From positions 681,704-745,703 of the forward strand of contig CAVVYO010000006.1 in assembly GCA_963752515.1 (NCBI GenBank): a stretch of DNA of 64,000 nt, given 5' to 3'. This document shows, piece by piece, positions 13,682 to 42,420 of the stretch. The notes below the pieces were generated by a model that saw nothing but the letters and a program-made list of their open reading frames with translations, was not told the origin of the DNA and did no database searches. Origin of the DNA: Candidatus Glassbacteria bacterium. GTDB taxonomy: Bacteria; Gemmatimonadota; Glassbacteria; GWA2-58-10. The translations under genes and the position numbers were made by a program. Positions within the stretch are counted from its first letter, which is position 1; each line of letters opens with the position of its first letter.

Positions 13682-14821
13682 TCATTCCTCCCGGTTGAAC
13701 TCCTCGATCAGCCGGATGGTCTGCTCGATTTTCTCCCGCAGTTTGAGCGGCGGCTCCCGGAGGCTGCCGATCGCCGGACCCAGCACCCCCGCCAGCTCGA
13801 CCCGCACCATCCAGGGCTCGGCCAGCGGATGCGGGTAACCCGCTTTCGCCGCCAGTTCCTCCGCCCAGGAGATCACCGCCGCCCCCAGCGCCGGGAGACG
13901 CCCCGGCTCATCGCCGAAACCATAGCAGCCGCAGTGGTGACGGCCGATCATCTCGGCGGTCTCCGAGGAGAACTGCCACTTGCCGGCCAGCAGTCGTCCG
14001 GCCAGCGGGTGGCCGAAGCCGAAGGCCTCCTCCTCCAGCCGGATCGTGTCCTGGTCCGCCCCCGGCTCCCCGCTCCCCAGGCGCTCGAACAGCAGGGCGG
14101 CCCGCTCGCGGTCATAGCAGGGGAAAACAATCCAGCCCAGGTCGTGCAGCAGCGCGGCGGTGGTGACCGCCCCCAGCGGTCCGGTGCGGCCCAGCACCTC
14201 CCGCAGCAGGAATTCGCTGGCCACCGAGACCGCGTGGGAATGCTTCCAGAAGGCCAGCAGGTCGAAACCGGCCGCCTCCCGGAACCGGCCCCCGATGGTG
14301 CGCTGCAGGGCATGGCCGAACACCATGTTCTTGACCTCGTTGTAGCCCAGGTAGGTGATCGCTCGCGGCAGGGAGTCGATGCGGGTGCTGAGCCCGAACG
14401 CGGCGGAGTTGACCAGCCGGATGATCCGCGCCGCATAGAACGGGTTGGAGGAAATGATCGTGGCGATCTCCCGCGGCTCCATCCCGAAATCGATCCGCAG
14501 CATCCGGGCCTCGCCCGGGTCCGGCAGCTCGCGCAGCACCTGTTCCAGCCGCCAGAGGGTCTCCAGCTCCAGGTCCGCGCGCTCCAGCGGCTGGCGGCCT
14601 CGCGGCCCCGGCGGCCGGAACTGCGCGGCGGCCGGGGCGGCCTGGTCCGCCCGGGCCGGAGCCTCCGCCACGGGCCGGGCCGGAGTCATCCCGGTCCCGC
14701 CGGCCTCCCGGCCGAGCCCGGTGCTGTCGAGGCTTCCACCCCCAGCGGCTTTCCCGCCCCGGCTCCGGTACAGCCACAGGATCGCCAGCAGCACCAGCAT
14801 GCCGATCAGTACCAGCTCCAT
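13682..14821 (-). CDS. Membrane-anchored HDOD domain protein
   Basis: N-terminal TM; RLVNSAAFG, AITYLG, FWKHS, LLHDLG, EEEAFGFGHP..G..LA.KWQF, HH; alternative start 14866. Confidence 0.85.
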   Translation of the reverse strand: MELVLIGMLVLLAILWLYRSRGGKAAGGGSLDSTGLGREAGGTGMTPARPVAEAPARADQAAPAAAQFRPPGPRGRQPLERADLELETLWRLEQVLRELPDPGEARMLRIDFGMEPREIATIISSNPFYAARIIRLVNSAAFGLSTRIDSLPRAITYLGYNEVKNMVFGHALQRTIGGRFREAAGFDLLAFWKHSHAVSVASEFLLREVLGRTGPLGAVTTAALLHDLGWIVFPCYDRERAALLFERLGSGEPGADQDTIRLEEEAFGFGHPLAGRLLAGKWQFSSETAEMIGRHHCGCYGFGDEPGRLPALGAAVISWAEELAAKAGYPHPLAEPWMVRVELAGVLGPAIGSLREPPLKLREKIEQTIRLIEEFNREE

Positions 14822-25961: not shown

Positions 25962-28706
25962 TCAAGCGTACTGCTGGAGCTTCTCTTTCAGTTGCAGGTA
26001 GGAGCAGGGCTTGAGCAGGTAGTCGTTGGCGCCGGCCCTGGTGGCCTGCTTGAGCAGGATGCTGGAGTTGAGGTCGCTCATCACGATCACCGGGACCTCG
26101 CTGGTCTCGGGCTTCTCCCGCAGGCTTTTCAGCACTTCCAGCCCATTGGCGAGCGGCATCCGCAGGTCCAGGAAGATCACGTCCGGCACGCTCTTTTCAA
26201 CCGCGTTCAGCGCCGCCCGGCCATTGAATACCGCCGCCGCCCGGAAGCCATCCCGCTTCAGCCCCCGGCACAGCTCCTGGCAGAACGCGATGTCGTCATC
26301 GGCCACCAGCACCAGCAGCCCCTGCTCTCGACGGCTGATCTTGGAGCCCGCCCGCCGCAGGTTGTCCTGCACCATCTCGTGCTTGTCGCTCTGGACCGCC
26401 TTGAGCAGGGCCTTGAGCCGGGGCTGGAAGTGGCCGATCTCGCCGATCACCCAGACCGCGCTGGAGCGCATCAGGTGGTCCTGGTCCAGCAGCATCTCCT
26501 GCAGGGCATCGTTCACATCCTTGTGGCCGAACTTCCAGATCGCCTTGATCGTATTGGCCCGCACCCGGTTGTTCTTGTCGAACTTGTACTTCATCAGGAT
26601 CCCGAGCACATTGCGGTTGCCGGCGGCCTCCAGCGATTCGATCACGTTGGCCCGCACCCGGTCGTCCGGGTCGTTGAGCAGCTTCATCAGCAGGCCCATC
26701 TCGTTCTGGTTCAGCATGTCGGCGATGATCCGCACCGCCGTGGCCCGCACCTGCGAGTCCTCATCGGCCAGGATTTCCGCCAGCGCCCGGGCGGTGAACT
26801 CCGAGTCCTCGCGGATCAGGATGTCGTAGATCGTCAGCGTGGTCCGGGGATTGGAGAGCTCCATCTCCCGCAGGTAGGAGTACTTCTTGTCCAGGCCGGC
26901 CACCAGGTCGATCAGCTTCTTTTTCTGCTGGATCCCGAGCACCGCCGTCTCCTCGTTCTGCCGGAGCACCCGCAGCACGATCTTGATGACCGTGTTGCGG
27001 GCCAGGTTGCGCAGGAACGAGCCGGCGTACTGGGAAAGCGGCAGGATGTGGCGCAGGCTCTCCAGGTTGCCGAAATAGGCCAGTTCCTTGAGGTGCTTGA
27101 CCCGGGCCTGGTCGGGCAGGAACTTGAGGCCCTCGGCCAGCAGCACCGCCCGGGCCTCCGGGTCCCGCTCCTCCTCCAGGCGCCGTCGCAGCTCTTTCTG
27201 CTGCTGTTCCAGCGCCTTGCGGTCAGGTTTCGCCTCCGGTCCGGCGGCGGCCTCCCCCGGCGCGCAAGCCACCCCGGGCGCGTCCGGGGCGATGGCGGCG
27301 GGGGCGGCCTCCCCTCGCAGCGCGGCCTCCAGCCCGGCGATCTCCTCCCGAACCAGGGCCGCGATCTCGCGGGCCTTGCGCTCCAGGGGCGGCTGCAGGA
27401 ACGCATAGAGCTCGATGTAGTAGTACAGGCTCTGCACCAGCCGCCCGAAACGCTCATTGTAGGGACGGATCACCCCGCTCTGGTAGAGCACGTTGTTCTG
27501 GCGGTGAAAGCCCTCCAGCCGCTGCTCCATCTGGGTGATCTGCTCCTCGAGCTGGGCGGTGTTGCTCAGGCGGTGGACCAGCAGGTTAAGCTCGCCATCC
27601 TCCAGCGGGTGGGCTGTCACCGCCTTGGCCCGGGCCTCATCGAGCCGGGGCTTGAGCTGGTGGAACAGCTCCAGCTGGGCCCGCTGCTCCTGGGAGAGCC
27701 GCTGATTCGGGGCCTCCCGGATTTCCAGCAGGGCGGTCAGCCGCTCGACTGTCGCCAGGTCCCAGGACTCCAGCCAGGCCTTGCGGTGCTCGCGGCCGAC
27801 CTTGGCCCCGGAGTTCATCAGCATCACCTGCTTGAACACCAGCGAGTCGCGCAGGAGCTCCAGCTCGAACCGGTAATAGCCGCGGAATTTCTCCAGCAGG
27901 CCCTTGACCACGTTCTGGCCGGCCTCGGCGGTGTAGACCTCGTCGATCACCCGCCGGATCTCATCCAGCGGGTGCTGGTCCCGGCTGATCTCGACCAGCC
28001 GGGCCCCCAGGGCGCGCAGCCGATCGCAGAGGAAAATCTGGCGTTCGAGGCCGGCCACCGGCTCCCCGTGGTGGATCTGCTCCTCCAGCCGCTGAGAGAG
28101 CGAGCCCTTCTTGGCCAGGTCGAGCTTGACCCGCTCGGTGTTGCTGAGGTTGAACTCATCGAGGTAGAAAAAGAAGCGCAGCATGGTGTCCCGCTCGTCG
28201 AGGAACACCCGGAAGCGTTCCCGGAACGCCTCCAGCTCCTCGTCGGAGAACTCCCGCTGCTGCTGGGTGTAGCGCAGGAAAATCAGGATGAAGTAGTGCT
28301 GGAAGACCGACAGGTCGCCGGCGAAAAAGCGTTCCAGGGCGGAGAGCCGGGACCGGTAGTGCTCCTCCAGCACCGCCCGGCGCTCCTCGGGACCGGAAGC
28401 GGCGGCCAGGCGCTCGCTGAACCAGGCATCGAGGAAAGTCAGCGCTCCCTGCAGGGTCTCGCCCAGGCCGGTCTGCTCCCCGCGGACATTCTCCCGGGGA
28501 TCGAGAAAGATCTGGACGAACCGGCTGTCTTTCTTGAGCTTGTCGAAGAGCCCGCCCAGGATCAGCCGGGTCTCTTCTTTCAGGCGCTCCAGGTTCTCCG
28601 GCCCGGCTTCTTGCAGGGCCTCGAACTTGCCCTCCAGGAACCGTCGCGCCTCCAGGCCCGGATTGGCCCTCAGCCCGAACTCCTGCTGGCTGCTTTTCTC
28701 GCTCAA
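25962..28706 (-). CDS. Large helical protein with HEAT repeats and a C-terminal receiver domain
   Basis: LNDPDDRVRANVIESL-type HEAT repeats; LVADDD, IFLDLRMP, YLLKP receiver motifs; TTG start. Confidence 0.8.
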   Translation of the reverse strand: MSEKSSQQEFGLRANPGLEARRFLEGKFEALQEAGPENLERLKEETRLILGGLFDKLKKDSRFVQIFLDPRENVRGEQTGLGETLQGALTFLDAWFSERLAAASGPEERRAVLEEHYRSRLSALERFFAGDLSVFQHYFILIFLRYTQQQREFSDEELEAFRERFRVFLDERDTMLRFFFYLDEFNLSNTERVKLDLAKKGSLSQRLEEQIHHGEPVAGLERQIFLCDRLRALGARLVEISRDQHPLDEIRRVIDEVYTAEAGQNVVKGLLEKFRGYYRFELELLRDSLVFKQVMLMNSGAKVGREHRKAWLESWDLATVERLTALLEIREAPNQRLSQEQRAQLELFHQLKPRLDEARAKAVTAHPLEDGELNLLVHRLSNTAQLEEQITQMEQRLEGFHRQNNVLYQSGVIRPYNERFGRLVQSLYYYIELYAFLQPPLERKAREIAALVREEIAGLEAALRGEAAPAAIAPDAPGVACAPGEAAAGPEAKPDRKALEQQQKELRRRLEEERDPEARAVLLAEGLKFLPDQARVKHLKELAYFGNLESLRHILPLSQYAGSFLRNLARNTVIKIVLRVLRQNEETAVLGIQQKKKLIDLVAGLDKKYSYLREMELSNPRTTLTIYDILIREDSEFTARALAEILADEDSQVRATAVRIIADMLNQNEMGLLMKLLNDPDDRVRANVIESLEAAGNRNVLGILMKYKFDKNNRVRANTIKAIWKFGHKDVNDALQEMLLDQDHLMRSSAVWVIGEIGHFQPRLKALLKAVQSDKHEMVQDNLRRAGSKISRREQGLLVLVADDDIAFCQELCRGLKRDGFRAAAVFNGRAALNAVEKSVPDVIFLDLRMPLANGLEVLKSLREKPETSEVPVIVMSDLNSSILLKQATRAGANDYLLKPCSYLQLKEKLQQYA

Positions 28707-28837
28707 GCTTCACCCCCGGCTCGAATCATTACCTGACCGGCCGAAAAATAACTCAAGAGCCATGACAGATCAACCAGGATCTGGCCGCCGGACAGCCCCC
28801 CCATCCGGGCCCGCCATCCCACGCAGCGGCAAAAGTA

Positions 28838-28866
28838 TTGACAGCCCTGGGTTCCGGATATAAAAT
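28838..28866 (+). promoter_or_regulatory. Near-consensus sigma70 promoter of the trp-his region
   Basis: TTGACA(28838)-17 nt-TAAAAT(28861). Confidence 0.8.
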
Positions 28867-28948
28867 ACATTCACCCGCATGATGGCGCACGGCAGTTCCG
28901 CCGCTCCATCGGGCGGGATCAGGTGTTTGCTCAACGGGGAACGGCAAG

Positions 28949-29059
28949 ATGGCGACCAACGGCTTCAGCAGCGCAGTCTGCACCTCCCGGTGCGGCGGAG
29001 AGTTCCTCTGGCGTGGCTGGCATCATCACGCCCGCGGACAGCTACGCCCGCATCCCTGA
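28949..29059 (+). CDS. Attenuator leader peptide (36 aa) with Trp and His control codons
   Basis: MATNGFSSAVCTSRCGGEFLWRGWHHHARGQLRPHP*; GGGGA RBS at 28936-28940; absent from the ORF track because it is short. Confidence 0.8.
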   Translation: MATNGFSSAVCTSRCGGEFLWRGWHHHARGQLRPHP

Positions 29060-29082
29060 ACGGGTTGCCGAACCGAAATTCC

Positions 29083-29130
29083 GAGCCGCGGGCGCTTGAT
29101 GTCAGAAGCCCCCGCGGTTTTTTCATTTTC
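29083..29130 (+). terminator. Attenuator terminator hairpin with U-tract
   Basis: GCCGCGGG-c-GCTT gatgtcag AAGC-c-CCCGCGGT then TTTTTCATTTTC, ~50 nt before the trpE ATG. Confidence 0.85.
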
Positions 29131-29178
29131 GCCGCCCTCCAAGCGGCCGGCTTTCCCCAGCACGAGGGAGCGACAACG

Positions 29179-30665
<1,487 letters not shown>

Positions 30666-30669
<4 letters not shown>

Positions 30670-31235
30670 TCCTGGTCATTGACAACTACGACTCCTTTAC
30701 CTATAATCTCGTCCAATACCTGGGCGAGTTGGGCGCCGAGCTGGTCGTGCATCGCAACGACAAGGTGACGGTGGATGAGGTCGAGCGCCTGGCCCCCCAG
30801 GGGGTGATCATCTCGCCCGGCCCGGGCGACCCCGATGATGCCGGCGTGTCCCTGGAGCTGATCCGCCGCCTGGGGGACCGGCTGCCGGTGCTGGGGGTCT
30901 GCCTGGGGCACCAGTGCATCGGCCAGGTCTACGGCGGCCGGGTGATCGGCGCGCCGACCCTGATGCACGGCAAGACCAGCCTGATCCGCCACGATGGCTC
31001 ATCGCTCTACGAGGGAGTCCCCAACCCTTTCGCGGCCACCCGCTATCATTCCCTGATGGTGGAGGAACAGTCCCTGCCTGACTGCCTGACGATCACCGCC
31101 CGCAGCGAGGATGGGGTGATCATGGGGCTGCGCCACCAGCGTCATCCGGTCGAGGGCGTGCAGTTTCACCCGGAATCGATCCTGACCGCCGATGGCAAGC
31201 GGCTGCTTTCGAATTTCCTGCGGCGGCTGGCCTAG
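30666..31235 (+). CDS. trpG: Anthranilate synthase component II (glutamine amidotransferase)
   Basis: [34 protein letters not shown]; ATGA overlap with trpE. Confidence 0.92.
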
Positions 31236-31471
31236 AGCGTGTGATGAATTCAGAGCGACCGGCTCGGGAAGCAGGAAAATACACAACCCCCTGTGTCCCC
31301 CTTTGGTAAGGGGGATCGTTCCCGCTTCGGCCCGGCAATGGCATAACGTTTGGGCGGCAGGCTGTTAATCCCCTCTAAACAGAGGGGTGGCGGCGACAGC
31401 CGACGGGGTGTGTGGTCTTTTTTAGCGGCCACTGCCCAGGCGTTAGCCTTCGCAGTGAATCACACGCTCTA
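31233..31471. mobile_element. MITE-like element with 13-bp terminal inverted repeat including flanking TA
   Basis: TAGAGCGTGTGAT (31233-31245) / ATCACACGCTCTA (31459-31471); carries the dispersed hairpin repeats; no transposase. Confidence 0.6.
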
Positions 31472-31484
31472 TCCGGGGGGCACG

Positions 31485-32093
31485 ATGGACTATGCCGGGA
31501 TCAGGAGCCGGCTGGGGCCCCCCGGGGCGCCCTGGGTCTGCTTTTTCTGCACCTCCGACCCGGAGGACCGCTCCAGCCTGGAAGAGGCCGAGCGGCTGGG
31601 AGCCTCCCTGGCCCGGGCGGGGTTGGTCGTGGTGACCGGCGGCTACGGCGCGGCGATGGAAGCCGCCAGCCGCGGCGCCAAGGAAGCGGGCGGGTACACG
31701 GTCGGGGTGACCTGCCGCATCTTCACCCGCCCGCCCAATCAACACTTGAGCGCCAAGGTCGAGACCGACTGTCTGCTGGACCGGCTGGAAACCCTGCTGC
31801 GCCTCGGCGATGGCTACATCGCCGGCAAGGGCGGCACCGGCACCCTGGCCGAGATCGCCCTGGCCTGGGAGTATATCAACAAGCGGATCATGCCGAAAAA
31901 GCCGCTGGTGCTGCTCGGGGAGTTCTGGGCCCGGTTGCCGGAGATCATGCGCGGGGCCGGGGCCGCCCCCGGGGTGAGCCTGGGAAGAGCCGGAGAGTCG
32001 ATCCGGGTGGCCCGGGATGTGGAGGAGGCTGTCGCGCTGCTGGCGCGCGAGCTGCCGGATCACCAGTCCACGGAGCGGGAGGCCGGCCGATGA
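31485..32093 (+). CDS. LOG-family nucleotide phosphoribohydrolase-like protein
   Basis: VVTGGYGAAMEAASRGAKEAGG; KGGTGTLAEI (PGGxGTxxE variant). Confidence 0.82.
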   Translation: MDYAGIRSRLGPPGAPWVCFFCTSDPEDRSSLEEAERLGASLARAGLVVVTGGYGAAMEAASRGAKEAGGYTVGVTCRIFTRPPNQHLSAKVETDCLLDRLETLLRLGDGYIAGKGGTGTLAEIALAWEYINKRIMPKKPLVLLGEFWARLPEIMRGAGAAPGVSLGRAGESIRVARDVEEAVALLARELPDHQSTEREAGR

Positions 32094-33110
32094 TTGTCGA
32101 GGCGATCCGCGGCCTGGTCGAGGGCCGCGACCTGAGCCCGGACCAGGCCCGCGCGGCGATGGGCGAGATCATGGATGGGCTGGCCCTGCCCTCCCAGATC
32201 GGCGCGTTCCTCACCGCGCTGCGGATGAAGGGCGAGACGGTCGCGGAGATCAGCAGTTTCGCCGAGGTGATGCGCGCCCGGGTGCGGCGGGTCGAATCCA
32301 AAGCCCACCCGCGCCTGCTGGACACCTGCGGCACCGGCGGCGACAGCACCGGCAGCTTCAACATCTCCACCGCCGCGGCCCTGGTCGCGGCCGGGGCCGG
32401 GATCCCGGTGGCCAAGCATGGCAACCGCTCGGTCTCCAGCGCCTGCGGCAGCGCCGATGTACTGGCCGCCCTCGGGGTGCGGATCGATGCCCCGCCGGAG
32501 CTGGTCGAGCGGGCGCTGGACCTGGCGGGGATCGCTTTCATCTTCGCCCCGTTGTTCCACCCGGCGATGAAAAACGCGATCGGCCCGCGGCGCGAGATCG
32601 CGATCCGGACAGTGTTCAACGTGCTGGGGCCGCTCACCAACCCGGCCGGGGCCCAGTGCCAGCTCCTCGGGGTCTACCACCCCGAGCTCACCGCCAAGCT
32701 GGCCGGGGTGCTTGAGCGGCTGGGGAGCAGCAAGGCCTACGTGGTCCACGGCGCGGGCGGGCTGGATGAGCTGAGCATCTACGGGCCGAGTACGGTGAGT
32801 GCGCTGGAGGATGGAGCGGTGCGCACTTTCGAGCTCACGCCGGAGGAATTCGGACTCCCGCGGCGCGAGCCCGGCGCCCTGCGCGGCGGAGATGTCGCCG
32901 ACAACGCCCGTGATCATGCACGCGGTGCTGGCGGGACAACCCGGCCCATACCGCGAGGCGGTGCTGCTCAATGCCGGGGCCGCGATCAGCGCCTTTTACC
33001 CGGGGCTGACCATCGCGGCCGGGATCGAGCGCGCCGCGGAGGCGATCGACAGCGGGGCGGCGCGGGAGAAGCTGGAGCAGCTGGTGATCATCACTAACGG
33101 GAAAGCCTGA
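32090..33110 (+). CDS. trpD: Anthranilate phosphoribosyltransferase; one frameshift near 32908
   Basis: KGET, DTCGTGGD, FNIST, KHGNRSVSS, RTVFNVLGPLTNP, GLDE; C-terminus (VLLNAGAA) in the next frame. Confidence 0.92.
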
Positions 33111-33124
33111 GCGCGAGGGATCGC

Positions 33125-33922
33125 ATGACCATCCTCGACCAGATCATCGCCCACAAGCGGCAGGAAGTGGCGCAAGACCGGGCGCAGTTGCCCCTAACGG
33201 AGCTGGCCGCCCGGGCGCGCGCGCTGCCGGACCGCCCCGCCGGAAGGTTCTCCCGGGCGCTGCGGCGCGAGGATGGCCGGATGGCGCTGATCGCCGAGCT
33301 CAAGAAAGCCAGCCCCAGCAAGGGCCTGATCCGCGCGGAGTTCGATCCATCCGCCCTGGCTTTGGGCTACCGCGCGGGCGGGGCCGATGCCTTGAGCGTG
33401 CTCACCGACCGCCGCTGGTTCCAGGGCGCGGACCAGTACCTGGTCCAGGCCCGGGAGGCTTCCGGCCTGCCGGTGCTGCGCAAGGATTTCCTCTGCGATC
33501 CCTACCAGCTCTACCAGGCCCGGCTGCTGGAGGCCGACTGCGTGCTGCTGATTGTCGCCGCGCTGGAGCGGCGGACGTTGGAGGAGCTGCTGGCCCTGGC
33601 GGCCGAGCTGGGGCTGGAGACGCTGGTGGAGGTCCACGACGAGGCCGAGCTGGCGGTCGCCGCGGCGGTCGGGGCGCGGCTGATCGGGGTCAACAACCGT
33701 GACCTGCACTCGTTCGAGACCTCGCTGGCGGTGTCGGAGCGGCTGGCTCCGCTGTTTCCCGAGGGCTCGCTGCGGGTCTCGGAGAGCGGGATCTCTTCCC
33801 GCGATGATGTGCTGCGCCTGCGGAACCTGGGTTACCACGCGGTGCTGGTGGGCGAGCACCTGATGCGCCGTCCCGACCTGACGGCCGCGGTGCGCGAGCT
33901 GATGGGCAGCGGGGGGCGCTGA
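33125..33922 (+). CDS. trpC: Indole-3-glycerol phosphate synthase
   Basis: IAELKKASPSKG, SVLTD, LRKDF, EVH, GVNNRDL, SESGI. Confidence 0.94.
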   Translation: MTILDQIIAHKRQEVAQDRAQLPLTELAARARALPDRPAGRFSRALRREDGRMALIAELKKASPSKGLIRAEFDPSALALGYRAGGADALSVLTDRRWFQGADQYLVQAREASGLPVLRKDFLCDPYQLYQARLLEADCVLLIVAALERRTLEELLALAAELGLETLVEVHDEAELAVAAAVGARLIGVNNRDLHSFETSLAVSERLAPLFPEGSLRVSESGISSRDDVLRLRNLGYHAVLVGEHLMRRPDLTAAVRELMGSGGR

Positions 33923-34560
33923 TGCGGGTACGGGTCAAGCTCTGCGGAATCACCCGGCTGGAGGATGCCCTGGTTGCGATCGAGGCCGGAGCCGATGCGC
34001 TGGGGTTCGTGTTCCACCCGCCATCCCCGCGCTACATCCAGCCGGATGATGCGGCGGAGATCATTGCCCGCCTCCCGGCGTTTGTCGCCACGGTGGGGGT
34101 GTTTGTCGACCGGCCGGCGGAGGTGGTGCGCCAGATCGCCCGCACCGCCCGGCTGGGGACGGCCCAGCTCCACGGCGCGGAAAGCCCGGAGTACTGCGAG
34201 AGCCTCGGGCTGAGGTACATCAAGGCGTTCCGCCTGCGCGAGGAAAGCGACCTGGAGCAACTGGCCGCCTATGGCCCGGGAAAAGAGTTCCTGCTGGACA
34301 GCTTCTCGGCCTCCGCGGAGGGCGGCACCGGCCAGGCGTTCGACTGGCGCTGGGCGAAAGCGGCCGCGCGCTATGGCCGGATCGTGCTGGCGGGCGGGCT
34401 CACCCCGGAGAATGTCGCCGCGGCGATCCGGGTCGCCCGCCCCGCGGCGGTGGACCTCTCCAGCGGGGTGGAATCCGCCCCGGGGATCAAGGACCACGCC
34501 CGGGTGAGGGCTTTTCTCCGGGCGGTGCGGGAGACAGAAAGCCCGCCGCCGGACAACTGA
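33922..34560 (+). CDS. trpF: Phosphoribosylanthranilate isomerase
   Basis: VKLCGIT, SPRYI, QLHGAES, GGTGQAFDW, LAGGL, SSGVE. Confidence 0.93.
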   Translation: MRVRVKLCGITRLEDALVAIEAGADALGFVFHPPSPRYIQPDDAAEIIARLPAFVATVGVFVDRPAEVVRQIARTARLGTAQLHGAESPEYCESLGLRYIKAFRLREESDLEQLAAYGPGKEFLLDSFSASAEGGTGQAFDWRWAKAAARYGRIVLAGGLTPENVAAAIRVARPAAVDLSSGVESAPGIKDHARVRAFLRAVRETESPPPDN

Positions 34561-34638: not shown

Positions 34639-35508
34639 ATGAAGATCAGGCTCGGGTTGCCCAAGGGCAGCCTCCAGGACTCCACGTTCGAGCTGTTCCG
34701 CAAGGCGGGCTACAATTTCAGCATCTCCGAGCGCAGCTACTTCCCCTCGATCGATGATCCCGAGCTGGAGGCGATGCTGATCCGCGCCCAGGAAATGGCC
34801 CGCTATGTCCAGGATGGGGTGTTCGATGCCGGACTCACCGGCTATGACTGGGTGATCGAGAACGATGCCGATGTGGTGGAAGTGGCGGACCTGGTCTACG
34901 CCAAGCGCAGCATGCGTCCGGTGCGCTGGGTGCTGGCTGTCCCCAACGACTCGCCGATCCGGAGCGCCAAGGACCTGCAGGGGAAGCGGATCGCCACCGA
35001 GGTGGTGAACATCGCCCGCAAGTACCTGGAGCGCCACGGGGTCAGCGCCGAGGTGGAGTTCTCCTGGGGCGCCACCGAGGCCAAGGTCCCGGAGCTGGTG
35101 GATGCGATCATCGAGGTGACCGAGACCGGCAGCTCGTTGCGCGCCAACAACCTGCGGATTGTCGAGACCGTGCTGGAGTCCACCACCAAGCTGATCGCCA
35201 ACAAGAAAAGCTGGCAGGACCCGGCCAAGCGCGAGAAGATCGAGAACATCGCCCTGATGCTGCACGGGGCGATCGAGGCCGAGGGCAAGGTCGGGATCAA
35301 GCTCAACGTGCGCAAGGCGGACCTGGAGCGGCTGATCGCGATCCTGCCGGCGATGAAAAACCCGACCGTCAGCACGCTCAACGATCCGGAATGGATGGCG
35401 GTCGAGACCATCCTCGATGAGAACACGGTCCGCCGGATCATCCCCGAGCTCAAGAAGCACGGCGGGCGCGACATCATCGAATACCCGCTCAACAAGGTCA
35501 TCCCCTGA
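34639..35508 (+). CDS. hisG: ATP phosphoribosyltransferase, long form
   Basis: [34 protein letters not shown]; C-terminal regulatory domain. Confidence 0.93.
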
Positions 35509-35534
35509 AAAGAAAACAGGGGACCGTTTTTTTG

Positions 35535-35947
35535 AGCGTGTCATGAACTGCTAAGCCTGGCGCCTGGTCGGTGAGCGCTGAAAAGAGGCGACACACCCCC
35601 CGCGGCTGCGCCGCCACCCCTCCGGCATCGAGGGGAGTGACAGCCTGTCGCTCAACCAGTTGCCGCAACTCTACGGGCGAAGCGAGCATAGTCCCCCCTG
35701 GAGGGGGGATGGTCCCGATTCTATCGGGACCAGGGGGGTGTGATGGCTGTCACGGTATCGGTGGCTGGTGCAGCACCGTGGCCTGACACCCCCCGGCCCC
35801 GCCTTCGGCGGGGCCACCCCCCTCCAGGGGGGACTTGACAGCCTGCCGCCCATTCGGTTGCACCAGCGCCAGGGCGTAGCGGTAACAATCCCCCTTAGCA
35901 AAGGGGGAAACAGGGGGTTGTGTTCTTTAAGCACTTTTCAACACGCT
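35535..35947. repeat. Composite hairpin-repeat insert between hisG and hisD, possibly a decayed MITE
   Basis: Short IR AGCGTGT/ACACGCT at the ends; several CCCCCC..GGGGGG hairpins; reverse complement of the 31281-31317 unit at 35890-35922. Confidence 0.6.
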
Positions 35948-35963
35948 GCTGAAGGAGCGACCG

Positions 35964-37253
35964 TTGGAATCCTCCCTCAAGCTGGTGGAACAAGGCCAGG
36001 AACGGTTTCTGGATGAGCTGGCCGCCCGTAAGGCCGAGGACCTGGACCGGGTGCTGGAACAGGTGGTGGCGATTGTCCGCGAGGTACGCGCCGGGGGCGA
36101 CCGGGCGGTGAGCGAGTTCACCCGCCGGTTCGATGGGGTCGAGCTGCCGCCCGAGCGCTTCCGGGTAAGCAGGGAGGAACTGGAAGCCGCCACGGTCGAG
36201 CCCTCGCTGGCCGCGCCGCTGGAAGAGGCTTACCGGCGGATCTGCGACTACCACCGCAAGCAACTCGCCAACTCCTGGTTCACCATCGGGGAGGATGGCG
36301 AAATCCTCGGCCGGCGCTTCCAGCCGGTGGACTCGGCGGCGATCTACGCCCCGGGCGGCAAGGCCGCTTATCCCAGCAGCGTGCTGATGGGAGCGGGCGC
36401 GGCCCGGATGGCCGGGGTGGCGCGGGTGATCCTGCTCTCCCCGCCCGACCGCGAGGGCAAGGTCAACCCGGCGGTGCTGTACGCCGCCCGGCTGGCCGGA
36501 GTGACCGAGGTCTACCGGCTGGGCGGGGCCCAGGCGATCGCCGCCGCGGCGTTCGGCACCGCGACCATCGCCCCGGTCCAGGTGATCGCCGGGCCGGGGA
36601 ACATCTATGTCACCGCGGCCAAAAAGCTGGTCTTCGGGACAGTCGGGATCGACATGCTGGCCGGCCCCAGCGAGGTGCTGGTGGTGGCGGACAGTACCGC
36701 CCGGGCCGACTGGATCGCCGCCGACCTGCTCAGCCAGGCCGAGCACGATCAGCGCGCCGGCTGCCTGCTGGTCACCCCGGAGCGCGGGCTGGCCCTGGCG
36801 GTCCGGGCCGAGTTGGAGCGCCAGTTGGCGCTGCTGCCCCGGCGCGAGATCGCCGCCGCGGCGGTGCGCGATTTCAGCGCGATCCTGCTGGCCCGCGACC
36901 TGGAGCACGCCGCCGCCCTGGCCAACCGTTTCGCCCCGGAGCACCTGGAGCTGATGGTGGCCGACCCCTGGGCCCTGCTCGGGAAAATCCGTCACGCCGG
37001 GGCGATCTTCCTCGGCCCCTGGACCCCCGAGGCGGTGGGCGACTACTGGGCCGGACCCAATCACGTGCTCCCGACCGGGGGCTCGGCCCGGGCGTTCTCC
37101 CCGCTGGGGGTGGACGTGTTTCGCAAAAGCTCGAGCATCATCTGCTACAACCGGGAAGCTTTCCAGCGGGCCGCAGTCCCGGTGGCCAGGCTGGCCCGGG
37201 CCGAGGGGCTGGAGGCCCATGCCCGCTCGGTGGACATCCGGACACAAGGATAA
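35964..37253 (+). CDS. hisD: Histidinol dehydrogenase
   Basis: YAPGGKAAYPSSVLM, GGAQAIAA, GPGNIYV, DMLAGPSE, QAEHD, APEHLE, GPNHVLPT; TTG start with GAAGGAG RBS. Confidence 0.94.
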   Translation: MESSLKLVEQGQERFLDELAARKAEDLDRVLEQVVAIVREVRAGGDRAVSEFTRRFDGVELPPERFRVSREELEAATVEPSLAAPLEEAYRRICDYHRKQLANSWFTIGEDGEILGRRFQPVDSAAIYAPGGKAAYPSSVLMGAGAARMAGVARVILLSPPDREGKVNPAVLYAARLAGVTEVYRLGGAQAIAAAAFGTATIAPVQVIAGPGNIYVTAAKKLVFGTVGIDMLAGPSEVLVVADSTARADWIAADLLSQAEHDQRAGCLLVTPERGLALAVRAELERQLALLPRREIAAAAVRDFSAILLARDLEHAAALANRFAPEHLELMVADPWALLGKIRHAGAIFLGPWTPEAVGDYWAGPNHVLPTGGSARAFSPLGVDVFRKSSSIICYNREAFQRAAVPVARLARAEGLEAHARSVDIRTQG

Positions 37254-37260
37254 AGGACCA

Positions 37261-38351
37261 GTGGCGACAGACCGCGACAGCATGATCGACAGCATCATCC
37301 GCGAGGAGATCCGGGCCCTCAAGCCCTACCGCTCCCCCCGGCACCATTTCCGGATCAAGCTCGACCTGAACGAGAGCCCGTTCGACCTGCCGGTGGAGCT
37401 GAAAAAACGCCTCCAGGCCCGGGTCGAGTCATTGCTCTGGCAACGCTACCACGATGAGTTCGAGGAACCATTGAGGGAGGCGCTGGCCGCCCACCTCGGG
37501 ATGCCGGAGGCGGGCATCCTGATCGGCAACGGCTCCAACGAGCTGATCTTCCACAGCCTGCTGGCCGCGGTGCGCCACGGCGACCCGGTGCTGATTCCCG
37601 AGCCCTCGTTCAGCCTTTACCGCCAGAACGCGCTGGTGCTGGGCGGGGAGCCATTGCCGTTCACGCTCAAAGCCCCGGCCTACCTGCCGGACCCGGAGGA
37701 AGTGCTCGCCCTGGCGGCCAGCACCCATCCCGCGGCGGTGGTGCTCTGCTCGCCCAACAATCCCACCGGCGGGCTGGTCCCTACCGCGGAGATCGCCCGG
37801 ATCGCGGAAGGGATCGCGGGGCTGGTAGTGGTGGACGAAGCCTATGCCCAGTTCGCCGAGGACAACTGCCAGCGGCTGGTGGCCGACCATCCCAACCTGA
37901 TTGTCCTGCGCACCTTCAGCAAGTATTTCGGGCTGGCGGGCTTGCGGTTCGGCTACAGCGTTTCCGGCAAAGAGCTGGCGGAGCAGATCGCCAAGGTGCA
38001 GCTGCCGCACCATGTCAATTTCTTCACCCAGCTCTGCGCCCTGGAGCTCTTGGCCGAGCCGGAGCTGATCGCCCATCGGACCGCGCGAGGTCAAGGCTGG
38101 AAGAGCGTTCCTGGAACGGGAGCTGGCGGCCCTGCCGGGGGTGACAGTCTACCCCAGCCAGGCCAATTTCGTGATGATCGGACTTGACGCGGCACACCCC
38201 CTCCCAGGTGTTCGAGGCCCTGATCGAGCGGGGGATCCTGGTGCGCAACATCAGCGGCTACCCCGGCCTGGGACACTGCCTGCGGATCACGGTCGGGCTG
38301 CCGGAAGAGCACGCGGAGCTGCTGGCCGCCCTGCGGGAGGTGCTGCGATGA
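37261..38351 (+). CDS. hisC: Histidinol-phosphate aminotransferase; frameshifts near 38080 and 38190
   Basis: KLDLNESP, GNGSNE, CSPNNPTG, DEAY, RTFSKYFGLAGLRFGY; PSQANF and LRITVG in later frames. Confidence 0.9.
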
Positions 38352-39391
38352 GCCGTCCCCTGGCGACCCTGCTGGAGGAGGCCGCTCCCGGGCTGCTGCG
38401 CAGGAGGGACCCCGCGCCTCTGCCCCTGGCGCGGATCGAGGCGGTGATTTTCGACATGGATGGGGTGCTGGTGGAGATCAAGGGCAGCTTCCGCGAGGTA
38501 ATCAGCCGCACCGTGCAGTTCTTTTTCAATGAGCTGCTGCAGGTGCCGGGCGAGGAAGTGCTGGTCAGCGGCGATGACACCGCGCTGTTCAAGCTGGCCG
38601 GGCGCTTCAACAACGACTGGGACCTGGCCAACGGCGCTGTCGCCTGGGGGCTGCTCAAGTACCTGGGGCGGGACGGCAACGGGGTAAGCATGCGCGAGCT
38701 GCGCCACGAGGCTCCCTCCCTGGAGGAGTTCACCGCCGAGGTCAAACGCCGCGGCGGCGGGCTGGTCCCGGTGATGGAACTGGTGCGCAAACGGCTGGGA
38801 GTCAAGGCGTTCCACCGTTTCGCCGACCTCTACCGCCCGGAGCTGGTCAAGCAGATTTTCATGGAGCACTACGCCGGCCCGGAGTACTGCCGTCGGTTCT
38901 ACCACTTCGAGCCGCGCTACTATCACGGCCCGGGGCTGATGCGCAACGAGCGCTACGTGATCGAGCTGGAGCTGCTGGAGCGCCTGGCCGCGCACGGGGT
39001 CGGGCTGGGAGTGCTCACCGGCCGGATCCCCGAGGAGGCCGATTTCCTGCTGCGACAGACCGGCCTGGACCGGCTGATCGACCAGGCGCACGTGGTCACC
39101 GATGATGGCGCGCTGCCGCCCAAGCCCAGCCCGGCCGGGCTGGCCGCCTTGGCCGAGCGGATGGGCTTTTCCGGGGCGATCTATGTTGGCGACACCCCGG
39201 ACGACTGGTCGACAGTCGCCGCCTACCGGATGCTCGATGGCGGAAGGCCGCCGTTCGCCGGCTGCCTGGTGCGACAGACCGGGGCCTTGCCGACCGAGCT
39301 GATGGAGCGCTATTTTCAGGAAGCCCGGCCGGACTACCTGGCCGAGGATGTCAACTGCCTGCTGCGGGCCCTGCTGTCAGTCCGCGGTTGA
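38348..39391 (+). CDS. HAD-superfamily hydrolase, candidate histidinol-phosphate phosphatase
   Basis: [29 protein letters not shown]; ATGA-coupled to hisC. Confidence 0.75.
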
Positions 39392-39477
39392 TTTTATCAA
39401 GTTCGCGCGGAGCATCGACCTGGCTTTTCCTGTGTCCGCTCCGGCTTCTGCCTGAACCTCAATCCGGGGGCTTCGCC

Positions 39478-40072
39478 ATGAGCGCACCGAGGACCGCCAC
39501 GGTCGAGCGCAAGACCGCCGAGACCGAGATCCGCCTGACCCTCAACCTGGATGGCACGGGCCGGAGCACGGTCGCCACCGGGGTCGGCTTCTTCGACCAC
39601 ATGCTCGACCGCCCTGGCCCGCCACGGCCGGTTCGACCTGGAGGTGAGCTGCCGGGGCGACCTCCAGATCGATGACCACCACACGGTCGAGGATGTGGGC
39701 CTGGTGCTGGGCGAGGCGATCGGCAAGGCCCTGGGCGACAAGCGCGGGATCGCCCGTTTCGCCGAGGCGCTGGTGCCGATGGATGAGGCCCTGGGCCGGG
39801 CGGTGGTCGATGTCAGCGGCCGGGGGCTGCTGGTCTTCCGCGGCTCTTTCAGCCGGGAGAAAGTGGGCGACCTCAGCACCGAGCTGGTCGAGGAGTTCTG
39901 GCGGGCGCTGGCCTCGCGGGCGGCGATCACCCTGCACCTGGAGCTGCTCTACGGGCAGAACGCCCACCACCAGGCGGAGTGCCTGTTCAAGGCCGCGGCC
40001 CGGGCGCTGGCCGGCGCGTTGGCGGTAATCCCGGGCCGGACCGATGTGCCCTCCACCAAGGGCGTGCTGTGA
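39478..40072 (+). CDS. hisB: Imidazoleglycerol-phosphate dehydratase (monofunctional); frameshift near 39610
   Basis: [49 protein letters not shown]. Confidence 0.92.
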
Positions 40073-40098
40073 AGCCGTGCGACCATGGACAGGATCGG

Positions 40099-40698
40099 AT
40101 GATAAATATCATCGACTTCCAAATGGGCAACCTCCGCAGCGTGGAGAAAGCCTTCCAGTACCTGGGCTTCCAGGCCCGGGTCAGCCAGGACCCCTCGGAC
40201 ATCCCCGGGGCGAGCCACCTGGTGCTCCCCGGCGATGGAGCGTTCGGCAGGAGCATGGAGCATATCCGCGGGATGGGCTTCGAGCAGCCCTTGCGGGAGT
40301 TCCTGGCCACCGGAAAGCCGGTGCTGGGGATCTGTGTCGGCTTCCAGCTGCTGTTCGAGCAGAGCGAGGAGATGGGCCTCCACCAGGGGCTGGCCCTGCT
40401 GCCGGGGACCGTGGTCCGTTTTCCGGCCGGGCGGAAGATTCCGCACATGGGCTGGAACCAGGTGGCCTGGCGCAAGGACTCGCCGCTGTCGCGGGGAATC
40501 CCGGACAACTCGTTCTTCTACTTCGTGCACTCCTACTATGCCCGGGCCGCCGCGCCCGGCGATGTGCTGGGCGCCACCGACTACGGGCTGGAGTTCGCCT
40601 CGGTGGTGGAGCGCGACAACCTGTTCGCCGTACAGTTCCACCCGGAGAAGAGCCAGGAGGCGGGTTTGCGCCTGCTGAAAAATTTCGCCTCGCTCTGA
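40099..40698 (+). CDS. hisH: IGP synthase glutamine amidotransferase subunit
   Basis: GNLRSV, GICVGFQ, IPHMGWN, YFVHSY, QFHPEKS. Confidence 0.93.
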   Translation: MINIIDFQMGNLRSVEKAFQYLGFQARVSQDPSDIPGASHLVLPGDGAFGRSMEHIRGMGFEQPLREFLATGKPVLGICVGFQLLFEQSEEMGLHQGLALLPGTVVRFPAGRKIPHMGWNQVAWRKDSPLSRGIPDNSFFYFVHSYYARAAAPGDVLGATDYGLEFASVVERDNLFAVQFHPEKSQEAGLRLLKNFASL

Positions 40699-40730
40699 GA
40701 CCGGACCACCTGATCGAGGGGTAAACACTC

Positions 40731-41471
40731 ATGGTACAGATCATTCCCGCGATCGATCTGATGGGCGGCCGGGTGGTGCGGCTGCGCCAGGGCCTCAGGA
40801 CCGAGCAGACCGCCTACTTCGAGGACCCCTCCGAGCCGGCCCGGGCTTTCCTGGAGGCCGGGGCCCGGCTGATCCATGTCGTGGACCTGGATGGCGCGTT
40901 CGGCGGCCATCCCGCCAACCTGGAGCTGGTCCGGTGGATTGTCCGGGCCCTGGAGGGCACCGGTTGCCTGATCGAGCTCGGCGGCGGGGTGCGCAACCTG
41001 GAGGCCGCCCGCCAGGTGCTGGAACTGGGAGTGAGCCGGGTGATCCTCGGCACCGCGATGTTCGCCGACCCGGAGCTGCTGCCCCGGGCGCTGGCGGAGT
41101 TCGGGCCGGAGCGGGTGGTGGCCGGGCTCGATGCCCGGGATGGCAAGCTGGCGGTGCGCGGCTGGGAGGAAGTGACCTCGCTGGACACCCTGGAGCTGGC
41201 GCGCCGGGTGGCCGCGCAGGGAGCGCGCCGGGTGATCTACACCGACATCGCCACCGATGGGATGCTGATCGGCCCCAACCTGCCGGCCCTGGAGCGGATC
41301 TGCGCCAGCGGCCTGAAGGTGATCGCCTCCGGCGGGATCTCGAGCCTGGAGGATGTGCGGACCGTGGCCCGGCTGGAGCCGCTGGGGGTCGAGGGGATCA
41401 TCATCGGCAAGGCGCTCTACGAGGGCCGGCTGACTGTCGCCGAGGCGATCGCGGCCGCCGGGGAGATCTAG
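40731..41471 (+). CDS. hisA: ProFAR isomerase
   Basis: [41 protein letters not shown]. Confidence 0.93.
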
Positions 41472-41560
41472 GAAGCTTGAGGAGCACCAGTCGGTCGCTC
41501 CTCAAGCTGTCCCGAAAACCAGGCCCGGCCCGGGCGATAAGAGGAAACCCTTAACTCATT

Positions 41561-41588
41561 GTAGGGGCGAGGCATGCCTCGCCCCTAC
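41561..41588. repeat. GTAG-type REP palindrome
   Basis: Perfect 28-bp palindrome GTAGGGGCGAGGCA|TGCCTCGCCCCTAC. Confidence 0.75.
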
Positions 41589-41640
41589 GGCCGAATCCCA
41601 TCGCATCGGGATAAACCAACTCAATTCTGGCGTGGGTCAC

Positions 41641-42420
41641 ATGCTGGCGAAACGGATCATCCCCTGCCTGGACATCGACAAGGGGCGGGTGGTCAAGGGC
41701 GTGCAGTTCATCAACCTGATCGATGCCGGGGACCCGGTCGAGCAGGCCAAGTACTATGAGGAGCAACAGGCGGACGAGCTGGTGTTCCTGGACATCACCG
41801 CCAGCCACGAGCAACGCGAAACTGTCCTCGAGCTGGCCCGCAAGGTGAGCGACCAGGTGTTCATCCCCTTCACCATCGGCGGGGGGCTGCGAACTGTCGA
41901 GGATGTGCGCCTGATGCTCAAGAGCGGGGCCGACAAGGTCTCGATCAACACCGCGGCGGTCAATGACCCCGCCGTGGTCACCGAAAGCGCCGAGCGGTTC
42001 GGCAGCCAGTGCATCGTGGTGGCGATCGATGCCAAGCGGCGGGCCGACTATGACCCCGCCCGCGGGGCGTTCGGCAACTGGGAGGTCTACACCCACGGCG
42101 GCCGCCGCCCGACCGGGCTGGATGCCGTGGAGTGGGCGATCGAGATCGAGCGGCGCGGCGCGGGCGAAATTCTGCTGACCAGCATGGACCGCGATGGCAG
42201 CAAGGCCGGGTTCGACTGCGAGCTGACCGCGGCGGTAAGCGGCAACCTCCAGATTCCGGTGATCGCCTCGGGCGGGGTGGGCACGCTGGAGCACCTCTAC
42301 GATGGGCTGATCCTGGGCCAGGCCGATGCGGTGCTGGCCGCCAGCATCTTCCACTTCCGGGAGTACTCGGTCACCCAGGCCAAGCAGTACCTGCGGGAGC
42401 GCGGGGTGCCGGTGCGCTGA
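41641..42420 (+). CDS. hisF: IGP synthase cyclase subunit
   Basis: [50 protein letters not shown]. Confidence 0.95.

Follow-up and report, generated by a model that had tools for sequence, protein, structure and literature searches.

What might explain why a short open reading frame (ORF) in front of trpE in Candidatus Glassbacteria carries histidine codons directly behind a pair of tryptophan codons? The ORF lies in a stretch of 64,000 nucleotides, here called the window, on contig CAVVYO010000006.1 of a GC-rich metagenome-assembled genome that has 15 contigs and is 76% complete. A reading made from the letters of the window, with no database searches (hereafter the sequence-only reading), had taken the ORF for the leader peptide of an attenuator that senses both amino acids and precedes a fused set of trp and his genes. 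We compared the locus with its relatives, a single family that constitutes the entire class (Glassbacteria, phylum Gemmatimonadota; 13 species genomes), and with trpE and hisG loci of other lineages. The element is very probably a classical leader-peptide attenuator. The best explanation for its codon content is that a ribosome-mediated attenuator, with codons for two amino acids, controls one long trp-his operon, and we consider this reasonably probable.

A leader ORF and an intrinsic terminator precede trpE

The promoter, the 36-codon ORF, the Trp and His codons, the terminator and the complementary segments listed by the sequence-only reading were all present at the positions it gave, and all features described below lie on the forward strand unless otherwise stated. 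A sigma-70-type promoter (28838-28866), in which a -35 and a -10 element are separated by a 17-nt spacer, matches the consensus at 11 of 12 positions; across 2 kb one such site was observed against 0.1 expected per shuffle. A -35/-10 pair is also visible in the upstream sequences of the relatives, at a distance from the leader similar to that in the window. A Shine-Dalgarno-like purine run (28936-28941) ends 7 nt 5' of the leader ATG; by eye, a comparable run is found in about half of the relatives and is weak in the others. The leader ORF (28949-29059) starts with ATG and consists of 36 codons and a stop codon (29057-29059). It contains the codon string Trp-Arg-Gly-Trp-His-His-His (29009-29029), of which Trp-Arg-Gly-Trp occupies 29009-29020, with Trp codons at 29009-29011 and 29018-29020, and the three His codons, the proposed second regulatory set, occupy 29021-29029. 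The region between the promoter and the first biosynthetic gene contains a translatable ORF that is rich in codons for the end products.

The leader ORF is separated from the first structural gene by an intrinsic terminator. It consists of a hairpin (29083-29120; core of the 3' arm at 29111-29117) and a U run (29118-29129) of six U residues (29118-29123) followed by C, A and four U; in genus g5 the U run is weak in all of the three genomes. The terminator folds with -25.8 kcal/mol compared with -16.8 ± 2.7 kcal/mol for shuffled sequences (z -3.3), and none of 200 shuffles was as good. Over 12 sequences, 97% of the cells of the terminator helix are paired, and two pairs show compensatory changes. 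A simple terminator scan did not list this hairpin because its loop is longer than the limit of the scan. A stable hairpin is also found in the 5' untranslated region (28874-28917), between the predicted transcription start and the leader ORF; its sequence, judged by eye, is not conserved among the relatives.

The fused trp-his operon that had been claimed behind the leader is borne out by Pfam matches to a row of genes from trpE to hisF. The genes trpE, trpG, a SLOG-family gene, trpD, trpC and trpF (29179-34560) are followed by hisG, hisD, hisC, a gene for a HAD hydrolase, hisB, the hisH region, hisA and hisF (34639-42420), in a conserved order. The same order is found in the contigs of seven relatives, reaching hisF in three of them and ending earlier at the contig end in the rest. 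In the window and in eight relatives, hisG follows trpF on the same strand, 3.7-5.9 kb after trpE. The trpF-hisG spacer is 78 nt in the window and 36-562 nt overall, it is not conserved, and no second leader was seen in the spacers of the window or the relatives. HisG is the long form, with the C-terminal regulatory domain present according to Pfam. The trpB and trpA genes are 330 kb away on the same contig, with no leader seen upstream of them, and hisI is on another contig.

The leader is conserved throughout the class

The comparison set comprises 12 leaders, all from Glassbacteria. A covariance model (R1) built from 11 leaders was searched against the 13 genomes of the class and found exactly one match each in 12 of them, always just upstream of trpE. 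The exception, G003, is 84% complete and is also without an orthologous trpE match. All ten relatives with DNA upstream of trpE have a short ORF in the same frame, then a terminator, then trpE, and an eleventh relative leader, in G009, lies on another contig. The frame is open in 12 of 12 leaders, and each relative in which the region is present has the promoter, an ORF in this frame and the terminator in front of trpE. This recurrence is more than chance.

The leader does not resemble the known families at the level of covariance models. An Rfam cmscan of 28000-30000 with E-values up to 10 matched neither Trp_leader nor His_leader, nor did it match the T-box model; it returned six weak and unrelated matches (E 0.63-9.6), far under the gathering scores.

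The leader RNA is predicted to form mutually exclusive helices

The N-terminal halves of the leader peptides vary freely, and the C-terminal halves align without gaps from the Trp-Arg codons to the Leu-Arg-Pro codons. The conserved codon blocks correspond to RNA strands: the Trp-Arg codons to strand A (strand 1, 29010-29016), the last His codon and the following Ala-Arg codons to strand B (29027-29037), and the Leu-Arg-Pro codons to strand C (strand 2, 29042-29051). Strand D is the 5' arm of the terminator, in which 29088-29094 is the antiterminator target. Unguided RNAalifold predicts a helix between A and C (29010-29016 with 29042-29048) together with the terminator. Helix A:C is paired in 77% of cells and has three pairs that changed on both sides; in a double change between two genus g8 genomes, G-to-A in strand A is matched by C-to-T in strand C. 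The joint covariation score of A:C and the terminator is greater than that of all 500 shuffles and of all slid registers.

Strand C can pair instead with D (29045-29051 with 29088-29094). This C:D helix is paired in 94% of cells, compared with 30-56% when slid, and each of the 12 leaders has a duplex energy between -13.7 and -18.1 kcal/mol. It shares bases of the 5' arm with the terminator, and the two are mutually exclusive; conservation and complementarity argue for it as an antiterminator. The conserved antiterminator is thus the predicted C:D helix, with its upstream strand (29045-29051) in the Leu-Arg-Pro codons.

The sequence-only reading had placed the antiterminator elsewhere, at 29029-29037 paired with 29086-29094, and had proposed a protector formed by 29010-29015 and 29027-29032. 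Both complementarities are exact, the former over 9 nt, but the proposed antiterminator does not stand in that form. Its pairing with the terminator arm is not conserved, with B:D duplex energies from -7.1 to -22.2 kcal/mol, the strongest value being that of the window itself and the relatives spanning -7 to -19 kcal/mol. In addition, the first base of 29029-29037 is the final base of the third His codon, and a ribosome stalled on the His codons would cover this segment; that pairing therefore cannot report a shortage of histidine, and sensing of histidine requires strand C. The protector survives in weakened form. An A:B helix is paired in 68% of cells in its best register, with one pair changed on both sides, and in G002 there are matching changes in A and B that are not followed by C, but RNAalifold and the compensatory changes favour 29010-29016 with 29042-29048. 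Either C or B can sequester strand A, according to lineage. Strand B is an auxiliary, lineage-specific element.

How would a translating ribosome choose between these helices?

From the elements, their conservation, their complementarity and the association of leader codon content with operon content, all of which were observed, we infer that the leader is translated, that the ribosome stalls on regulatory codons and that read-through of the terminator responds. Transcription would start approximately 75 nt upstream of the 36-codon leader ORF. As long as both tRNA-Trp and tRNA-His are amply charged, the ribosome would reach the end of the leader and cover strand C (29042-29051), the terminator (29083-29120 and the U run) would form, and transcription would stop before trpE. 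A ribosome stalled at either Trp codon (29009-29011, 29018-29020) or at any of the three His codons (29021-29029) would have a footprint that falls short of strand C. The free strand C would then pair with 29088-29094 in the 5' arm of the terminator, no terminator would form, and the whole trp-his operon, encoding five tryptophan-pathway enzymes followed by the greater part of the histidine pathway, from hisG to hisF, would be transcribed. With no ribosome on the leader, strand A could pair with C, or in some lineages with B, and termination would be favoured. The leader would therefore act as an OR gate that turns the operon on when either amino acid is short. Each pathway is presumably controlled separately by feedback inhibition, which would act on TrpE and on the long-form HisG.

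The spacing of the elements is consistent with this scheme if the ribosome footprint is taken as 30 nt, a value assumed on general grounds. Between the end of the last His codon (29029) and the start of strand C (29042) there are 12 nt, and the stop codon (29057) is 6 nt past the end of strand C. With a Trp or His codon in the A site, such a footprint leaves strand C free, and a ribosome at the leader end, as at the stop codon, covers it; a stall on a regulatory codon would thus free the antiterminator and the end position would mask it. We also performed partition-function folding with a masked ribosome, using a transcript cut 5' of the 3' arm of the terminator. In this window, C:D pairing amounts to 12-33% when the second Trp codon, any of the three His codons or the Ala codon occupies the A site and is zero otherwise, and in all 12 leaders it drops to zero once the A site is one to two codons beyond the Ala codon.

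Are the histidine codons regulatory?

That the His codons would be conserved was a prediction of the sequence-only reading, and it holds across the class. In 12 of 12 leaders there are two to three His codons within the four codons preceding the conserved Ala codon, and at least one Trp and at least two His codons upstream of strand C. His accounts for 39 of the 391 leader residues in the 12 genomes (10.0%) and Trp for 33 (8.4%), compared with 2.0% and 0.75% in the 3881 residues of the proteins encoded by the operon itself. Both kinds of codon are conserved, and the operon encodes both pathways, as would be expected of a multivalent leader; both are candidate regulatory codons.

Alternatively, the element could be an attenuator for tryptophan only. 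The His codons would then be a by-product of constraints on the RNA in strand B and its surroundings, or of drift, the charging of tRNA-His would be without effect, and the his genes would ride on tryptophan control supplemented by feedback inhibition of HisG. The last His codon gives this alternative some substance. Together with the Ala codon it forms strand B, which is able to pair with A, and the position is CAC in 10 of the 12 leaders, as though fixed at the nucleotide level; the last His may therefore be kept for structure. There are also no more than two to three His codons to begin with. However, the other His codons belong to the loop of helix A:C and are free of constraint by any predicted helix. 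The positions they occupy differ between genera, the best-populated position uses both synonyms (CAT in five leaders and CAC in four), and yet every leader retains at least two His codons. An operon for most of the histidine pathway that lacked any input from histidine would be unusual.

Leader codons and operon content in other lineages

If the His codons are there on account of the his genes, leaders of other operons should be informative. Elsewhere in the phylum, 18 trpE loci from five further families were inspected, and a leader was seen in three loci of family f3, the sister family, and in no others. The f3 leaders are Trp-rich and have no His pair. In the one f3 member that was read past trpF (L214, G020:C12:41500-58000), a Trp-only leader precedes trpEGDCF(B)A and five aro genes, encoding DAHP synthase, EPSP synthase, shikimate dehydrogenase, chorismate synthase and a shikimate kinase/DHQ synthase fusion, and no his genes were found in the 14 kb searched. 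Among 98 trpE loci from many phyla there are 15 short Trp-pair ORFs with a terminator; eight Trp leaders from outside Glassbacteria were judged plausible by position, and each has at most one His codon. Glassbacteria were represented among the matches listed for the TrpE search of genome contigs by two records, duplicates of G011 and G004.

The HisG search of metagenome contigs found no Glassbacteria (best identity 74%) and yielded His-only leaders as well as one locus with a mixed leader, L129. Enough upstream DNA was available for 71 of the 80 HisG metagenome loci, and at least 11 carry a short ORF with a run of His codons before hisG. None of these candidate leaders reaches two Trp codons, although one contains a lone Trp codon; no trp genes were seen in their loci.

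Both trp and his genes were present in 11 of 178 loci, one of which is a Glassbacteria duplicate. Six loci from Omnitrophota and Planctomycetota run from hisD to hisI and then to trpE; neither the DNA in front of hisD nor the hisI-trpE spacer contains a leader, and these loci are uninformative. Three further loci either have no leader or have upstream DNA that is unreadable. In locus L129 the genes are arranged hisG-D-C-B-(H)-A-F-I-trpE. The DNA in front of its hisG (L129:7270-7485) contains a promoter with 11 of 12 consensus matches, a ribosome binding site and a leader of 26 codons, five of them for His and two for Trp, in which four His within five positions are followed directly by Trp-Cys-Trp-Arg-His; the terminator has a folding energy of -16.7 kcal/mol (z -4.8) and nine U residues. 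The TrpE and HisG proteins of L129 are 50% and 67% identical, respectively, to those of Glassbacteria, and the gene order is reversed, with the his genes first; for these reasons we take the mixed leader of L129 to be of independent origin.

The expectation that Trp and His codons occur together where trp and his genes are fused is supported by these comparisons, with mixed codons in 12 of 12 Glassbacteria leaders and no His pairs in the Trp leaders of trp-only or trp-aro operons. Both this contrast and the mixed leader of a separate lineage with a row of genes from his to trpE count against a tryptophan attenuator with incidental His codons. We therefore regard control by tryptophan only as rather unlikely. 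It is probable, with a fair margin of doubt, that the leader also reads tRNA-His, which is best supported by conservation, by position and by the match between leader codons and operon content in two independent lineages. Whether a two-input OR gate for Trp-tRNA and His-tRNA, serving separate pathways and born of operon fusion, evolved at least twice, in Glassbacteria with trp first and in L129 with his first, is a proposition to which we give even chances.

Weak matches to R1 (E 3e-7 to 6e-5 in a small search) were found to three kinds of leader. In two metagenome contigs (L165:764-892 and L152:6965-7092) a His-only leader, with five His in approximately eight codons and a terminator, precedes hisI-hisG-hisD and aligns weakly to R1 over the His codons, strand C and the terminator. 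In Candidatus Poribacteria (L048:574-746) a Trp leader with four Trp in five codons and a terminator precedes a hisI-like gene and then trpE. A leader before trpE in Latescibacterota (L090:5887-6058) contains Trp-Tyr-Trp, two Phe and three consecutive Tyr codons, and may sense several aromatic amino acids. The part common to R1 and its weak matches is strand C and the terminator arms, and the likeness may reflect common descent or convergence on a simple G/C-rich design.

Could the peptide itself be the active product?

Another explanation is that the C-terminal half of the leader acts as a peptide, either by nascent-chain arrest in the manner of TnaC, with a Pro near the stop codon, or as a small protein acting in trans, and that the His residues are conserved for this role. 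The residues His-x-His-Ala and Leu-Arg-Pro are indeed kept in register, the stop codon follows zero to two codons later, and in genus g5 Pro is the last sense codon. There is also a precedent in peTrpL of Sinorhizobium, a Trp leader peptide that acts in trans according to the available parts of the sources (PMC7298713, 10.1101/606483). Nevertheless, nearly every conserved codon other than the His codons is explained by RNA strand A, B or C, and His codons that shift in position suit the counting of codons better than a fixed peptide contact. A role for the peptide is improbable. That there is no regulatory element at all, and that a chance ORF lies beside the ordinary terminator of an upstream transcript, is scarcely credible: an unexceptional fold of the whole leader and the lack of a matching Rfam family would fit, but the upstream neighbour, a HEAT-repeat response regulator gene, is on the opposite strand, and 12 of 13 genomes have kept the promoter, the ORF frame and the terminator, in each case in front of trpE.

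Points against a bivalent attenuator

Several observations weigh against a leader that reads both tryptophan and histidine. Some concern the RNA. The whole 263-nt leader has no extra stability compared with shuffled sequence (z -0.61). The C:D helix has no compensatory double changes among the 12 leaders, because it is nearly invariant. The ribosome-constrained folding that the sequence-only reading had put forward as a check came out mixed: the loss of C:D past the Ala codon is uniform, but C:D is predicted to form even without a ribosome in six relatives (G005, G011, G010, G006, G009 and G004), and the occupancy of the terminator 5' arm by any upstream partner is approximately equal at every ribosome position. 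The masked-ribosome simulations are noisy and carry little weight. Others concern the codons. Part of the His conservation may be structural, the last His and the Ala codon also forming strand B, and with only two to three His codons the sensitivity to histidine could be low. Caution also comes from Streptomyces ilvB, where candidate regulatory codons failed a mutational test, as stated in the available part of PMC1262725.

The remainder concern sampling and genomic context. All 12 leaders belong to a single class and do not count as independent cases, and the contrast with other lineages amounts to few independent events. The trpF-hisG link is not visible in four relatives (G003, G008, G009 and G011) because their contigs end, and in G008 an oxidoreductase-like ORF follows trpF where other genomes have hisG. 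Co-transcription of hisI and trpE is uncertain in L129, where the spacer between the two genes contains a long imperfect hairpin (14545-14650).

The ORF of G008 (L216:113-1135, in G008:C14) is on the minus strand, encodes 340 amino acids and has an N-terminus that by eye resembles Gfo/Idh/MocA-type oxidoreductases. The contig ends 112 nt past it, and hisG was not found in the G008 assembly.

Other features of the operon

The SLOG/LOG-like gene between trpG and trpD (31350-32093; Pfam LDcluster4 and Lysine_decarbox) is kept at that position in the contigs of eight of eight relatives, with no obvious role in tryptophan synthesis. A -35/-10 pair with 12 of 12 consensus matches and a 17-nt spacer (30679-30707) lies inside the first codons of trpG. 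It overlaps the conserved N-terminal motif of the amidotransferase, and it may be a by-product of coding or an internal promoter.

The hisG-hisD spacer (35509-35963) is 456 nt long in the window and roughly 10-30 nt in relatives, as estimated from match coordinates. It contains a repeat unit of approximately 200 nt, a perfect inverted repeat of 19 nt and several G/C-rich palindromes, and is a lineage-specific insertion of G/C-rich repeats, resembling repetitive extragenic palindromes or miniature inverted-repeat transposable elements. Three of the genes are irregular: the Pfam match of trpD stops before the end of its ORF (32900-33100), the hisC ORF (37219-38190) is shorter than its domain, and the expected hisH region (40044-40724) has no Pfam match in the listed frame. 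Together with the 76% completeness of the genome, this suggests assembly indel errors or real frameshifts.

Significance of a mixed leader

Searches of open-access full texts found no Trp/His leader, subscription journals and supplementary files being outside their scope, and the sequence-only reading likewise knew of no described leader of this kind; nor did these searches yield anything on gene regulation in Glassbacteria. The Glassbacteria element extends classical attenuation to Gemmatimonadota. If the leader does respond to both amino acids, attenuation would be a device that can be re-programmed simply by the addition of codons when operons merge, and the Glassbacteria leaders would be a natural test case for the minimum number of regulatory codons and for their placement relative to strand 2. 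The codon content of leaders would then track the gene content of operons, so that in uncultured bacteria it could serve to predict the limits of transcription units and the logic of their regulation. In practical terms the value is modest, a compact and portable two-input amino acid sensor being predicted.

Comparison with known attenuators and trp-his linkages

The enterobacterial trpL leader has 14 codons, whereas the leader described here has 36, and the operon behind it is without trpB and trpA and runs into his genes. In design the two are alike. The trp attenuator has a promoter-proximal ORF, two Trp codons in strand 1 and the logic of 1:2, 2:3 and 3:4 pairings, and the two Trp codons in strand 1, the intrinsic terminator before trpE and the coverage of strand 2 by a ribosome at the stop codon are all reminiscent of the Glassbacteria leader (available part of PMC1183508). 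There is, however, no similarity to trpL (Rfam Trp_leader) in sequence or covariance model, and in Glassbacteria His codons are situated between strands 1 and 2. The hisL leader of Salmonella and E. coli likewise has His codons in an ORF upstream of genes that include hisG, together with terminator and antiterminator alternatives. The enterobacterial his leader, though, has a run of seven His codons, whereas here two to three His codons stand beside Trp codons, the Rfam His_leader model does not match, and hisG is the seventh gene rather than the first.

Linkage of the two pathways is also known from other phyla. In Mycobacterium and Streptomyces a row of his genes is followed by trp genes. 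As in Glassbacteria, the pathways of Actinomycetota are linked functionally and genomically, there through PriA, which combines the HisA and TrpF activities; a mixed leader is not described in the available parts of the sources (PMC13055916, PMC5404923). Glassbacteria, unlike organisms with this dual-substrate isomerase, keep separate trpF and hisA genes. The aromatic supraoperon of Bacillus subtilis consists of trp genes followed by hisC, tyrA and aroE. It resembles the Glassbacteria operon in that a trp operon is embedded in a larger unit with an aminotransferase gene named for histidine, but it is without the histidine pathway. Its trp genes are controlled by the TRAP protein and not by a leader peptide (available parts of PMC3064811 and PMC4027176).

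The multivalent leaders are the systems in which one leader ORF has regulatory codons for several amino acids, as proposed here. They include thrL, with codons for Thr and Ile, and ilvL and ilvB, with codons for Ile, Leu and Val, and a shortage of any of these amino acids relieves termination. The amino acids of thrL and the ilv leaders are branches of one pathway family, whereas tryptophan and histidine are made by separate pathways that share only phosphoribosyl pyrophosphate and homologous enzymes. Runs of Ile, Val and Leu codons are also carried by actinobacterial ilv leaders (available part of PMC1262725). Leader-peptide attenuation itself, including multivalent leaders within one pathway family, is well known, and what would be new here is the leader with both Trp and His codons, whose mixed codon content mirrors the fusion of two operons.

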